In this document: positions 59,709 to 64,000 of the stretch, piece after piece
How positions within the stretch are numbered: the first letter of the stretch is position 1
How the letters are laid out: the number at the start of each line of letters is the position of its first letter
DNA from: Escherichia coli
GTDB taxonomy: Bacteria; Pseudomonadota; Gammaproteobacteria; Enterobacterales; Enterobacteriaceae
Assembly (NCBI RefSeq): GCF_036507355.1
Contig: NZ_AP027877.1
Length of the DNA: 64,000 nt
Reading direction: 5' to 3' (one strand)
The notes under the pieces: model-generated
Databases searched by the model: none
The model's input: only the letters and a program-made list of their open reading frames with translations
What the model was told of the DNA's origin: nothing
Made by a program: the position numbers and the translations under genes

Positions 59709-60611
59709 TTATGAAAGCATAGACCGTTTACCCTCCCTGGGTACGACGGAACAGGGGTCCTGGTGGATAATCACATCCGATCCCGGAAAACGCCGTAAAA
59801 TAGCCTGCTCTACCTGATCCGCCACCATATGTGCCTGAACCAAAGGCAGAGAGTCTTCCATTTCCAAATGAATCTGAATAAAGCGGGTCGGCCCTGACTG
59901 CCGCGTGCGAAGATCGTGAGCGCCGCTAACACCCGGCCAGGAAGTCACGATATCAATAATTTCTTGCCGTTCCTCATCAGGCAATGCGCGATCCAGTAAT
60001 GACTGTACCGCCTCATATCCCATGCGTAACGCGCTATATAAAATATAGATGCCGATTCCCAATGCAAACAGAGCATCGGCGCGATGCCAGCCGTACCAGG
60101 ACAACCCCAGCGCCAGCAGAATTGCGCCGTTCATCATAACATCAGACTGGTAATGTAGCATATCAGCCCGCACCGCCTGGCTTTGCGTCCGGCGCACCAC
60201 CCAACGCTGAAACGAGACAAGTATAATCGTACAAATTAGCGCCACAATTGTCACGATAACCCCGACGCCTGGATCTGTCATCGGTGTTGGAGATATCAGA
60301 TGTTGAATACCCGTCAAAAACAGGAATAGTGCTGAACCGGAGATAAACATACTTTGCGCCAGCGCCGCGAGGGACTCAGCTTTACCGTGACCAAACGAGT
60401 GATTATCGTCGGCAGGTTGCAGGGAATATCGCACCACCAGTAAATTCGTCAACGACGCGCCGATATCCACCAGCGAATCCACCAGCGCGGCGAGAATACT
60501 CACCGACCCGGTATACCACCATGCAAAAATTTTAATCAGCAATAGCAGCGAAGCCATCGCCGTCGCAGCAATCGCCGCCCGACTGACCAGCCGTCCATAA
60601 GATTGATTCAT
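59709..60611 (-). CDS. fieF: cation diffusion facilitator (Zn/Fe efflux)
   Basis: 300 aa from MNQSYGRLV; CDF family. Confidence 0.9.
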
Positions 60612-60692
60612 AAATACTCCCGCTATCAACTGACGCTAGTATAACGGAAGCAAATCATCTGCAATGCATTAAGCAGCAGGCAAATTGAGGAT

Positions 60693-60719
60693 AAAAAAAA
60701 CCCCCACATCATGTGGGGG
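60693..60719 (-). terminator. rho-independent terminator (minus strand)
   Basis: Hairpin CCCCCACAT C ATGTGGGGG with A8 on plus strand (T8 on minus strand), about 100 bp downstream of the 170-aa ORF. Confidence 0.75.
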
Positions 60720-60818
60720 AAGACAGGGATGGTGTCACAAAAAAGCACCTAACCTGATGATATAAATGGATTTATGTCAACCGCTGTCCACATAGCGTCC
60801 ACATCGTTCAGCGTCCGT

Positions 60819-61331
60819 TTAATCGGACGCTTTTAAATTTTTATTTTTCCCAGCAGAAAAATTAGCTTTCCCGCTGTTTTGCAACTCAACAAGAGGAGAT
60901 AACCGTCGGTAAACAGCCAAAAGTATCTTTAACTGAACCAGTTCATCTGCCCCCGATAGTTGAACCAAGTTTTTACGTTGTTCTTCACTAAGTGCCATCA
61001 CAGATTCAAGTGATTTAACTGCGTCAGAAACAAGTTCAATCTCTTTAATTTGATTCTGTATACGCAGCTTCTCTGATTTCAACTTTGCCCATTCTCTTTG
61101 TCGATATGTACGCATCACCTGATCGTAAACTTTGTTGGCAGCCAGAATACTTCCACCAACAGCAGTAACTAACTCAGCAATCTGCCAAGAGATATCAATA
61201 AGAGCAGACAATTCAATAAAGCCAGGAGAGGCATACTGAATTTTTTTCACTACAGGACGTAAATCTGGTGGAGTCGCACTGTAAGCCCCTCTAAAAAAGT
61301 TCACCACACTGTGCCCACCCTCCCAAGGCAT
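60819..61331 (-). CDS. hypothetical protein (170 aa; predicted coiled-coil C-terminal half, no signal peptide)
   Basis: AT-rich ORF with AGAGGA SD 9 nt upstream of ATG; own terminator; IS lies about 35 bp upstream of start. Confidence 0.6.
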   Translation of the reverse strand: MPWEGGHSVVNFFRGAYSATPPDLRPVVKKIQYASPGFIELSALIDISWQIAELVTAVGGSILAANKVYDQVMRTYRQREWAKLKSEKLRIQNQIKEIELVSDAVKSLESVMALSEEQRKNLVQLSGADELVQLKILLAVYRRLSPLVELQNSGKANFSAGKNKNLKASD

Positions 61332-61365
61332 TGTTGAATATCCTCTTGATCCTCCTTTTAGGCGC

Positions 61366-62431
61366 TGAATTTACAATCCAAGTGCAACAAAAAAAGAAGT
61401 ACTCATCAACTAGAATATAATTTTGTTTCCACACAAAAACCACTTCCAAATGATGAGTACTTCCTACCGACATCTTACAATAAACGAGCGAGAAAAGATA
61501 ATGATTTTACTCGCACAGGGCAAAAAACAAGCAGAAATTGCCAAAGCACTGGGACGTAGCTCCAGCACCATTTCTCGCGAGCTGAAACGACACGCTCTAG
61601 AAAGCTACAGTGCAACGAACGCACAAAACAGCTATTTGAAGCATCGTCAAAATAGCAAAGCACAGCGCAAATTAGAGCAGCCTGAATATTTCAATTTGGT
61701 GCAAGAAAAGTTTCTGACAGAAAACTGGTCGCCCGAACAAATCAGCGCACGATTAAAATTGGAAAAATCTGAATTATCCATTAGTTATTCAACCATTTAT
61801 CGTGGTATTTATTCAGGGTTGTTTGATATAGGCGAACGCAAAGCCAGTCGCAAACTGCGCCACAAAGGCAAAACACGGCATACAAAAAATCATCATGAAA
61901 AACGTGGCAAAATTCAGATATCCAACCATTTGAACGACCGTCCCATTTCGGCGCAAAATCGCAGTCGCTTTGGACATTGGGAAGCCGATACCGTACTGGG
62001 TAAAGCGGGTGGAGCTTGTTTGCTGACGCTGACGGAACGCAAAAGTCGTTTTGAGTTGGTGAAGAAAATTCCTGCCAAAAAAGCCGAAGCAGTCCAAAAA
62101 GCCATGATTGAATTGCTGGATTCACATATATTGCGGTCAATTACGCCAGACCGTGGTAAAGAATTTGCCCAACATCGTTTGGTAACAGAAGCACTGGGTG
62201 TAGAATTTTACTTCCCCGAGCCGCATCAACCGTGGACACGGGGAACGAATGAAAATACAAATGGGTTACTTCGTGAATACTTTCCGAAGCACCAAGACAT
62301 CAATCAGTGGAGCGAAGTTGATATTCAACAGGTGATCAATAAACTGAATTTACGACCACGTAAATGTTTAGGTTGGAAAACACCTTATGAAGTTTACTTC
62401 AAAAAATCGTTGCACTTGGTTTGACAATTCA
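61366..62431 (+). mobile_element. IS30-family insertion sequence (about 1.07 kb; ISApl1-like by size)
   Basis: Imperfect terminal inverted repeats TGAATTTACAATCCAAGTGCAAC (left) and GTTGCACTTGGTTTGACAATTCA (right) flanking a single transposase ORF; boundaries +/-3 bp. Confidence 0.75.
61423..62424 (+). CDS. IS30-family DDE transposase
   Basis: N-terminal HTH (TINEREKIMILLAQGKKQAEIAKALGRSSSTISRELKRH), GHWEADTV and NENTNGLLR motifs; first codon of track ORF is TTG, true start probably internal. Confidence 0.85.
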   Translation: MFPHKNHFQMMSTSYRHLTINEREKIMILLAQGKKQAEIAKALGRSSSTISRELKRHALESYSATNAQNSYLKHRQNSKAQRKLEQPEYFNLVQEKFLTENWSPEQISARLKLEKSELSISYSTIYRGIYSGLFDIGERKASRKLRHKGKTRHTKNHHEKRGKIQISNHLNDRPISAQNRSRFGHWEADTVLGKAGGACLLTLTERKSRFELVKKIPAKKAEAVQKAMIELLDSHILRSITPDRGKEFAQHRLVTEALGVEFYFPEPHQPWTRGTNENTNGLLREYFPKHQDINQWSEVDIQQVINKLNLRPRKCLGWKTPYEVYFKKSLHLV

Positions 62432-62433
62432 AG

Positions 62434-62532
62434 GCCATAAAAAAAACCATATAGCTGCAAATACTCTTTCGTTAAGACCGCGAAATCAGCTAACTCCCAA
62501 CGATTATCAAGCTCAATTATAACTTTTTCCAT
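62434..62532 (-). other. short ORF (33 codons, MEKVIIELDNRWELADF...) with GGTGG SD that runs into the IS right end; possible truncated gene 5' end
   Basis: ATG at 62532 on minus strand, open until the IS boundary. Confidence 0.3.
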
Positions 62533-62636
62533 TTTCCACCAACCTGTCCAACTTTAAAGATTGACTTTTAAGTATATGATAAACATAGTTTATTAAACGT
62601 GATCCACTACTTTTAATGAAGAATATTCCCCAAAAC

Positions 62637-62663
62637 AGAAAGCCCCTCGACTGAGGGGCTTTC
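62637..62663. terminator. bidirectional hairpin terminator
   Basis: AAAGCCCCTC GACT GAGGGGCTTT with T-rich flanks on both strands. Confidence 0.6.
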
Positions 62664-62672
62664 TGTTTGTAA

Positions 62673-62771
62673 TTACATCCACATAATTTGCTGCCCTGAC
62701 GGCAACGGGTGCGGTCTTACGGCGTGGACTTCTCCCGGCTTGTCCAGGGTAATGACATTTTCTTTGTTCAT
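62673..62771 (-). CDS. small ORF (32 aa, MNKENVITLDKPGEVHAVRPHPLPSGQQIMWM)
   Basis: ATG start, ends just before the hairpin terminator; no recognisable homology. Confidence 0.25.
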   Translation of the reverse strand: MNKENVITLDKPGEVHAVRPHPLPSGQQIMWM

Positions 62772-62931
62772 GGTTTTCTCACTTCTGAATCAGGGTTAAC
62801 CGGCCAGCCAGGCTGACCGGATGAAAATCACAGGCCGATATTGCGGCGGTGTTGCTCCAGCCGGTCGACGCCGTTCACCTTCTCAATCATGTTGATGGTG
62901 TCAATTTCGACCAGCTCCTTACCGTCCATCG

Positions 62932-63138
62932 TCAGCCGGAAATAACCCATTTTTCACCGGCACGAGCCTTCGGTTTGCAAGGATCACGCAATTCAATAAT
63001 TGGTAATTTATTTGCCTTCACCATTTCACTGACGGCTGTCTTTGGCTTCCCTAATAAATCAGCAAATTTATCCACATGAACCGCATCAAGCGGATACTGA
63101 ATCACATAATTTTCAGCGTCCATATATGGTACCCTCAT
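62932..63138 (-). CDS. excisionase-like / small winged-helix DNA-binding protein (putative Xis)
   Basis: 68-aa ORF divergent from the HTH-integrase pair; FADLLGKPKTAVSEMVKANKLPIIEL segment resembles excisionase-type winged helix; family assignment tentative. Confidence 0.45.
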   Translation of the reverse strand: MRVPYMDAENYVIQYPLDAVHVDKFADLLGKPKTAVSEMVKANKLPIIELRDPCKPKARAGEKWVISG

Positions 63139-63259: not shown

Positions 63260-63553
63260 ATGAAATTAAGCGAAAAGATTAAGGCCTTGCGTGAGGCTGA
63301 AGGGCTAAGCCAATCAAAATTCTGTGAAATCATAGAGTTACCGCTAAGCACACTTAAAAAATATGAAGGAGGAAACTTTGAACCCGGTGGCACAGCTTTG
63401 CTAAAAATCACTATGCATCCCACATTCCAAAAATATGCTCTATGGCTTATGACAGATAAAACCGCGCCGGACGCAGGACAAATCGCACCGGCTCTCGCGC
63501 ACATTGGGCCAGAGTCAACAGAGTCCAACCACTCCGAGAAAAGGATTGGATAA
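63260..63553 (+). CDS. XRE-family (Cro/CI-type) HTH transcriptional regulator
   Basis: 97 aa; LSEKIKALREAEGLSQSKFCEIIELPLSTLKKYE is a typical Cro/C1 HTH. Confidence 0.75.
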   Translation: MKLSEKIKALREAEGLSQSKFCEIIELPLSTLKKYEGGNFEPGGTALLKITMHPTFQKYALWLMTDKTAPDAGQIAPALAHIGPESTESNHSEKRIG

Positions 63554-63622: not shown

Positions 63623-64000
63623 ATGGCAATTAAGAAGCTCGATGATGGTCGCTATGAAGTGGACATTAGACCTCGCGGTCGCGACGGAAAACGCATCCGC
63701 AGGAAATTCGAAAGAAAAGCTGAAGCACTAGCATTTGAGCGATACACAATCGCCAATGCCAGTCAGAAAGAATGGGGAGGCCAGCGAGCAGACCGCCGGA
63801 CTTTGAGTGAGTTGCTGGACATCTGGTGGAAATATCACGGGCAAAACCACGAGCATGGAACAAAAGAGTTTAATCATCTACTCAAAACCATCAGCGGCAT
63901 AGGTGATATACCAGTGAACAGGATGAGCAAAAGGGCTTTGATGGATTATCGTTCCATGCGACTACGTGATGGTATCAGTGCCGCAACGATAAACCGTGAC
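63623..64000 (+). CDS. tyrosine-type site-specific integrase, N-terminal part (truncated by window end)
   Basis: GGAGGG SD 8 nt upstream; 126 codons open to window end; MAIKKLDDGRYEVDIRPRGRDGKRIRRKFERKAEALAFE is a typical arm-type DNA-binding N-terminus; not in the ORF track because there is no stop in the window. Confidence 0.75.
   Translation, partial: MAIKKLDDGRYEVDIRPRGRDGKRIRRKFERKAEALAFERYTIANASQKEWGGQRADRRTLSELLDIWWKYHGQNHEHGTKEFNHLLKTISGIGDIPVNRMSKRALMDYRSMRLRDGISAATINRD

Follow-up and report, generated by a model that had tools for sequence, protein, structure and literature searches.

A predicted short, partner-less relative of PD-T4-10B, interrupted by ISApl1 at the end of a P2-like prophage remnant in Escherichia coli

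Gene content of the locus

The window, by which we mean the whole stretch of 64,000 nucleotides of Escherichia coli DNA that was analysed, contains the chromosomal genes tpiA-cdh-sbp-pfkA-fieF with 99.3% identity to K-12. The homology to K-12 stops at 60736 and a mobile element begins at 60737. The features from the fieF side onwards are listed below, where L numbers denote loci of other genomes used for comparison and the gene interrupted by the insertion sequence is called the cargo gene.

60690..60736, no strand: attR core of 47 bp, GATAAAAAAAACCCCCACATCATGTGGGGGAAGACAGGGATGGTGTC, the fieF-side copy of a direct repeat
60719..60701, minus strand: intrinsic terminator hairpin CCCCCACATGATGTGGGGG followed by T8, from the terminator scan, the attR copy of the cpxP/CpxQ terminator
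60819..61363, minus strand: 3' part of the cargo gene, with the last base of codon 33, codons 34–213 and the stop
61364..62433, plus strand: ISApl1 (IS30 family), 1070 bp, transposase at 61450..62424
62436..62532, minus strand: 5' part of the cargo gene, with codons 1–32 and the first base of codon 33
62533..62672, minus strand: 5' region of the cargo gene, with a Shine-Dalgarno (SD) sequence, a weak promoter-like pair and the terminator-like hairpin of ogr (62660..62641)
62673..62741, minus strand: 3' remnant of ogr, the last 69 nt, encoding ...KPGEVHAVRPHPLPSGQQIMWM and the stop, colinear up to 62741 with L010 and L001, where it is annotated ogrK
62735..62944, minus strand: 210-bp scrap of tail genes, the start of tail assembly and the end of tail tube, 97% identical to L001 13690-13899
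62932..63138, minus strand: partial cox-like gene, "Cox family DNA-binding protein, incomplete" in matching ETEC genomes
63260..63553, plus strand: C-type immunity repressor (HTH), matching an NCBIfam RstR-family repressor with E=9e-9; an HTH protein is annotated beside the integrase in relatives
63624..64000, plus strand: 5' part of a phage integrase gene that runs off the window, 99.9% identical to L010

The cargo gene and its reading frame

The first-pass annotation of this DNA had drawn attention to an AT-rich open reading frame of 170 residues, and an ATG-to-stop frame of that length is present on the minus strand at 60819..61331. It is an incomplete gene, namely the larger fragment of a gene of 213 codons that has been cut by ISApl1, and it corresponds to about codons 43/44–213 with a start at the internal Met43 (ATG 61331). 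When positions 61364..62435 (ISApl1 and one GC) are removed in silico, 60819..61363 joins 62436..62532 and an open reading frame of 642 nt encoding 213 amino acids is restored, the product of which is 100% identical to WP_000416606.1 and one residue off WP_000416605.1, both annotated as "hypothetical protein" in complete E. coli genomes. As the 170-aa frame is only a fragment, the alternative given in the same annotation, a protein of about 215 aa interrupted by an insertion sequence, was the right one, with the length adjusted to 213. The 5' part had been listed as the front of a 54-aa frame at 62368..62532 on the minus strand, which reads into ISApl1 and holds 32–34 residues of the gene. With a GC content of 39.9%, the restored gene lies below both fieF (52.0%) and the window as a whole (51.7%), in keeping with the AT-richness first noted. 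With homologues up to E=4e-132, and 393 matching clusters in a 50%-identity library at E<=1e-3, the restored sequence certainly codes for a protein.

The true start of the gene is ATG 62532, with the SD sequence GGTGGA at 62540..62535 as read from the sequence. The motifs AAGGAGG and AAGAGGA that stand before the Met43 ATG 61331, earlier taken for the SD of the gene, are internal to the real coding sequence. A weak promoter-like pair, TTCATT (62620..62615) and TTTAAT (62597..62592) spaced by 17 nt, is located upstream of the gene; the consensus promoter scan gave no minus-strand call in 62533..62672, and the promoter should thus be regarded as putative.

Insertion of ISApl1

The interrupting element is ISApl1, with a length of 1070 bp, an IS30-type DDE transposase, inverted terminal repeats and a 2-bp target duplication, which is GC at 61362-61363 and 62434-62435. 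It is 99.9% identical over 1070/1070 bp to the annotated copy of E. coli strain E423, the transposase matches NCBIfam transpos_IS30 with E=3e-92, and the matches in RefSeq are annotated "IS30-like element ISApl1 family transposase". The window holds a single copy, and the junction is found in none of the 159 complete E. coli genomes that carry the gene at this locus. ISApl1 is known for the mobilisation of mcr-1, and prefers AT-rich DNA as target. Strain E423 has an independent copy (L011 3007-4076) about 670 bp away and outside the gene, directly abutting the attR core on its outer side (window-equivalent 60689/60690), so that the AT-rich prophage end has been struck by ISApl1 at least twice.

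The insertion separates the native promoter, the SD sequence and residues 1-32, and with them the first β-strand and most of the first α-helix, in which W11 is invariant and Y27 nearly so, from the remainder of the gene, and the terminator and promoter scan found no minus-strand promoter-like site from 61332 into the interior of the IS that could serve the fragment. The gene in the window is therefore almost certainly inactivated. The 170-aa frame could still be functional here if the internal SD-like motifs allowed translation from Met43 and transcription started at the left end of ISApl1 or within that end, and both AAGGAGG and AAGAGGA precede the ATG at 61331, a start also favoured by gene callers in intact genes; against this, Met43 is not conserved, the family having Y, F, Q or H before the PWxGG motif, the fragment would lack the strand and helix with W11 and Y27 that pack against the fold in the model, and the stretch between 61332 and the IS interior is free of minus-strand promoter-like sites. 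We therefore consider a working 170-aa protein very improbable, and the fragment is very probably non-functional in the window strain. The window locus as such is ordinary, a decayed prophage with a pseudogene that an IS has inactivated.

At least 1000 contigs contain exactly this sequence of 170 aa. At seven of the eight places examined, the 129 nt upstream of this frame are an intact in-frame continuation, and gene callers often choose the Met43 start even in such intact copies (loci L024-L031 examined). The 170-aa calls are probably a systematic start-site error, in all probability caused by the internal AAGGAGG and AAGAGGA motifs, and this common database error should be kept in mind as the protein is often listed with 170 instead of 213 residues. 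An entry of 170 aa labelled Salmonella is present in AFDB. Disrupted alleles occur now and then, as a frameshift in L030, as truncated cluster members and as the IS insertion of the window, and most copies are intact.

The prophage and its attachment site

The boundary of the element was obtained by comparison of K-12 (empty site), strain PSS-08-1 and the window. PSS-08-1 has the same 47 bp at both ends of the element, and since this direct repeat bounds the insert, with the attR core at 60690..60736, the gene lies inside the element, between ogr and the attR core, as was supposed when it was called the cargo of an integrative element. The host element is a P2-like prophage that sits between fieF and cpxP, with the cpxP/CpxQ terminator as its integration site. 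The window contains ogr', the tail scrap, cox', C and int, and the relatives show the P2 gene order with att repeats. In L010, a gene of 981 nt annotated "phage integrase" is followed by cpxP, and attL is seen there; judged by the related genomes, attL and cpxP lie beyond the integrase gene, outside the window. The cargo gene occupies the place where cpxP had been expected, and the statement that it is not CpxP-like was borne out. CpxP was rejected as an identity for the product, which has neither a match to Pfam LTXXQ nor a signal peptide.

The att core (1845-1891 in the K-12 locus, L012) overlaps 44 of the 58 nt of CpxQ, those at the 3' end; according to the K-12 annotation, this sRNA is the 3'UTR and terminator of cpxP. 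Integration keeps cpxQ whole on the cpxP side, and a 5'-truncated copy of CpxQ with its terminator is found 82 nt downstream of the cargo gene; transcripts of the cargo gene would therefore carry a CpxQ-like 3' tail. An Rfam search of 60400..62800 gave no match above the gathering score and no match to the CpxQ family. In the scan, the hairpin at 60719..60701 is the only terminator on the strand of the cargo gene that lies downstream of it, and so the strong terminator previously ascribed to the gene exists but belongs to cpxP/CpxQ, as the attR copy. Another G+C-rich hairpin, AGCGTCCG-TTTAAT-CGGACGCT at 60810..60831, overlaps the stop codon of the cargo gene and has its T-run on the opposite (plus) strand; it would stop transcription entering the prophage from the fieF side, not that of the cargo gene.

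The prophage of the window is, by its gene order, a decayed remnant of deletion in several steps, int-C-cox'-tail scrap-ogr'-gene. A full P2-like prophage is present in L001 and L011, and remnants in L010 and L016. Strains Ecol_224 and E423 have a complete P2-like prophage with the gene between fieF/attR and ogrK, and two other genomes have a different, smaller prophage remnant in which the cargo gene is intact. At least three remnant architectures occur at this site in E. coli, those of the window, of PSS-08-1/GZ2408P and of ETEC P15-25, and none of the complete genomes of the E. coli collection has the exact arrangement of the window. The gene is found at the fieF locus in 159 of 5426 complete E. 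coli genomes, with the intact copies between fieF and ogrK.

The same arrangement with an intact gene was found on a Salmonella contig, which was also the sole close match in a search of plasmids. This contig, NZ_CP092913.1 (65202-79840, L023), is an 80-kb linear Salmonella "plasmid unnamed1" with fieF, pfkA, sbp, cdh, the same prophage and the intact gene, and is apparently a piece of chromosome that was filed under the wrong label. The locus shows that the same phage lineage lysogenises Salmonella at the equivalent site.

In the P2-like prophages integrated at yegQ and pflB (five sampled), the interval from ogr to the chromosome is empty, and the remnant of ETEC P15-25 at the cpxP/fieF site has a different gene of 135 aa in the same slot, without a PADLOC match. 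The slot is therefore specific to the cpxP/fieF integration module, and the idea of the ogr-att interval as a general P2 hotspot was rejected, the five prophages at other att sites being empty there. The known P2 hotspots are gpA-portal and fun/Z (PMC9519451) and further sites are listed in bioRxiv 10.64898/2026.02.27.708500; the ogr-attR slot differs from these. It would mark a place for accessory genes adjoining attP, in the one P2-like lineage that uses the CpxQ sRNA/terminator as its target.

Homology to PD-T4-10B

The PD-T4-10 system consists of two genes and was obtained from E. coli ECOR65 by functional selection (Vassallo et al. 2022, PMC9519451). PD-T4-10B is toxic alone and is neutralised by PD-T4-10A, which could not be deleted; deletion of PD-T4-10B abolishes resistance to T4, and the defence is abortive and protects against T-even phages (PMC9519451). 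DUF6575 is among the new defence domains listed in that work (PMC9519451).

Searches of Pfam, NCBIfam and PHROGs with the 170-aa and the 213-aa proteins gave nothing meaningful, in agreement with the earlier remark that no motif could be assigned, but PADLOC profiles of PD-T4-10_B are matched by the intact protein with E=2e-34 (PDLC04024), 1e-22 (PDLC04025) and 4e-19 (PDLC04026). The best match covers positions 139-346 of the 353 in the profile. The 170-aa piece alone matches positions 187-346 of 353 with E=9e-27 and the 5' piece alone positions 139-173 with E=1e-5, that is, the pieces on the two sides of ISApl1 match adjacent stretches of one profile. An exhaustive HMMER search of the 50%-identity representative library gave 393 clusters at E<=1e-3, and among the best 150 of these 93 are stand-alone short forms of about 210–240 aa and 32 are long forms of about 320–400 aa with the domain at the C-terminus. 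Aligned by hhalign, the short-form and long-form alignments correspond with a probability of 100% and E=2e-66 (short 5-214 to long 145-353), and the window protein starts at the equivalent of long-form residue ~145. Invariant or near-invariant in both forms are W11, Y27, P44-W45-x-G47-G48-x-S50, F54, S77-P78-G79, K177 and R184. The N-terminal extension contains Pfam DUF6575 in 17 of 30 long forms, and the domain is found in none of 64 short forms.

A PD-T4-10_A gene lies upstream of and overlaps the B gene at all three long-form loci examined (L013, L014, L015); at the two loci tested by PADLOC the A genes match with E=1e-32 and 1e-21, and the third was recovered by an HMM of A. The PD-T4-10_A homologue of L013 (751-1164) also has a weak PADLOC match to Csm3 (RAMP) with E=0.0011 over ~100 residues, which is probably due to chance. 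The HMM of PD-T4-10_A, built from the three long-form loci, found no such gene in a six-frame translation of the 64-kb window or at ten short-form loci (best E=7.7), nor did PADLOC in the frames adjoining the gene.

We are thus highly confident in the identity and architecture of the gene as a relative of PD-T4-10B that is short and has no partner. Over its full length, the 213-aa protein corresponds to the last ~208 residues of PD-T4-10B-type proteins and shares with them the motifs W, Y, PWxGGxS, SPG, K and RR, and both are carried on a mobile element in E. coli. In contrast to PD-T4-10, the gene of the window has no antitoxin A beside it and its product no N-terminal DUF6575-like domain (~140 aa), and it is a solo gene with its own putative promoter at a prophage end, which the PADLOC system rule would not call as PD-T4-10. 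This short architecture appears to be new, and the family has no Pfam or NCBIfam entry. A literature search for the protein accessions found no mention of them in the library searched, profiles made from the short- and the long-form alignments matched PDB sequences by chance only (E>0.4), the long forms, used in a profile word-index search, led to metagenomic proteins alone and not to the original PD-T4-10 locus of E. coli, and blastn of one long-form locus against E. coli genomes found nothing. PD-T4-10 is an experimentally found defence system of E. coli without a mechanism or a recognisable toxin domain, and the conserved C-terminal region of PD-T4-10B, widespread as a free-standing gene without partner, offers a simpler object for finding out the function of the domain and the toxic part of PD-T4-10B.

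Genomic contexts of the short forms

The short forms were found in seven different contexts with no conserved neighbour on either side. In E. coli and Salmonella the gene lies at the edge of a P2-like prophage, in Enterobacter beside an Ogr_Delta gene and gapA, and in Pectobacterium at a prophage end after tail-fibre and invertase genes, while the Siccibacter gene follows umuDC-like genes and that of Colwellia is near transposases. Pseudomonas sp. GM80 (L004 6001-7668) has the short form in a prophage-like element, and 27 bp further on comes the gene of a DUF4917 protein with a match to the PADLOC candidate PDC-S21 (E=3e-97) and a weak similarity to SIR2; the two genes may constitute a small defence island. 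The homologue in Vibrio (L018 2864-3717), 47% identical, forms a cassette by itself in a chromosomal integron and is flanked by attC repeats of the VCR type, of which there are at least 11 in the locus of 8.6 kb. From these varied contexts, with neighbours that are never conserved, the short form behaves as a self-contained, horizontally mobile single-gene module. In the first-pass annotation, clear homology to a characterised housekeeping protein, or homologues that never go with mobile elements, would have counted against its proposal; no housekeeping homologue was found, and the homologues are repeatedly on mobile elements.

Properties and predicted structure of the protein

The intact product is a protein of 24 kDa with a pI of 9.1. 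As had been noted for the fragment, no signal peptide or transmembrane segment was found, the highest Kyte-Doolittle mean over 19 residues being 1.35 and the N-terminus acidic, and the 213-aa product is predicted to be cytoplasmic. A membrane-spanning or pore-forming protein was rejected on the same hydropathy value. AlphaFold2, run with an alignment of 64 sequences, gave a model with a mean pLDDT of 89.5 and a pTM of 0.86, consisting of a three-stranded sheet (2-7, 69-74, 79-84), helices at 13-36 and 51-60 and a helical bundle at 87-194, with the first strand and the first helix packed against the rest of the fold. The C-terminal half, earlier described as a coiled coil, is helical in the model but forms a folded bundle and not an extended coiled coil. 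The structure search returned no solved (PDB) relative. The alignment contains no conserved acidic or histidine residue and no catalytic residues; the glycine-rich loops together with the S, K and R residues suggest binding of phosphate or nucleic acid, not metal-dependent catalysis.

Proposed function of the intact gene

The earlier guess that the gene might serve abortive infection or another kind of defence gains from the match to PD-T4-10_B (E=2e-34), as PD-T4-10B is needed for abortive-infection defence against T4, but the gene has no A partner and no DUF6575-like domain, and is a fragment in this strain. We regard it as an insertionally inactivated accessory gene of the prophage, the intact form of which would be a single-gene abortive-infection effector without a dedicated antitoxin, and put the probability of this reading at about 0.55. 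A defence role, extrapolated from a relative with an additional N-terminal domain and an antitoxin, is plausible, and for the proposed mechanism of the intact short form by itself the odds are roughly even. A lysogen would make the intact short protein from the prophage, using the weak promoter and the SD sequence of the gene, with the transcript ending at the duplicated CpxQ terminator. The short protein would be a self-contained effector that is harmless until a superinfecting phage triggers it, and the triggered protein would then arrest the infected cell through the surface that is conserved in PD-T4-10B (W11, Y27, PWxGGxS 44-50, SPG 77-79, K177, R184), and the arrest would protect the lysogenic clone and its prophage. 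Expression in lysogens, toxicity, trigger and defence phenotype are what we infer. A tblastn search of 50,697 phage records gave no match, which counts against the defence reading.

The free-standing short forms raise the question of how cells that have no antitoxin can put up with a "toxin" domain. Its occurrence in this state on at least 1000 contigs argues against constitutive toxicity, and would fit a non-toxic role equally well. The short protein could accordingly be an accessory factor of the prophage with no part in toxicity or defence, in which the shared domain has a sensing, regulatory or scaffolding function and the DUF6575-like N-terminal domain is the toxic one; binding of nucleic acid or a host factor, modulation of lysogeny, or service as a decoy against related systems would be possible roles. 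Such a factor would most easily explain why short forms are never accompanied by an antitoxin (ten loci and the window) and yet are intact on so many contigs, and it is also in line with the position of the sole named domain of PD-T4-10B, the N-terminal DUF6575, which is absent from the short forms, and with the absence of conserved catalytic residues. However, the identical set of conserved residues in short and long forms indicates that the same biochemical activity has been kept, and the contexts (integron cassette, prophage edge, PDC-S21 neighbour) are typical of defence genes. Tolerance without an antitoxin is moreover seen for many validated single-gene abortive-infection proteins. On this evidence we consider the accessory factor, which is the main rival, rather unlikely.

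It could further be assumed that the gene encodes an orphan toxin controlled from elsewhere and not by auto-inhibition, be it through an antitoxin in trans or one made of RNA, or because H-NS, for instance, or the repressor of the prophage silences the AT-rich gene, and that its disruption by ISApl1 relieved a cost. The low GC content of 39.9%, the toxicity of PD-T4-10B alone in the two-gene system and the occasional pseudogenised alleles (the L030 frameshift, the truncated cluster members, the IS of the window) speak for this, but no neighbour is conserved on either side in the seven contexts, no antisense frame of at least 40 aa lies over the gene, and Rfam gave no match above threshold in the region. 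Most copies are also intact, and ISApl1 targets AT-rich DNA in any case, with the E423 insertion ~670 bp off and outside the gene, and an orphan toxin is therefore improbable.

The effector reading brings the gene close to the defence morons carried by P2 prophages, which include old, tin and fun/Z; P2 hotspots have reportedly been described by Rousset in 2022. Like these morons, the gene of the window is AT-rich, single, putatively expressed in the lysogen, located in a P2-like prophage and related to a defence protein, but its ogr-attR position differs from both the gpA-portal hotspot and the tail locus of fun/Z. The single-gene defence cassettes of Vibrio superintegrons are another parallel, the 47% identical homologue being a cassette of one gene, whereas the copy of the window is prophage-borne. 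More generally, the domain of ~210 aa might be a minimal abortive-infection effector that needs no antitoxin, is directly activated by a phage cue and moves between prophage ends, defence islands of prophages and integron cassettes, with PD-T4-10 derived from it by addition of the DUF6575 regulatory domain and the antitoxin; we put this forward as a tentative and on balance doubtful idea.

In AFDB, two proteins that bear the label "DUF4868 domain-containing", after a domain known from KwaB of the Kiwa system, superpose on the model of the window protein with a Foldseek E of ~1e-8 and TM of 0.75-0.78, near the level of true members, and this is regarded as a lead only. None of 94 family members matches Pfam DUF4868 at E<=0.1, PADLOC at E<=1 returns PD-T4-10_B only for the intact protein, there is no match to a solved structure, and no transmembrane partner of the KwaA type adjoins the gene in the window. 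If the domain is a minimal effector, a distant link to KwaB-like (DUF4868) proteins would in addition point to DNA binding or a block of replication as its mode of action, and not to enzymatic activity.
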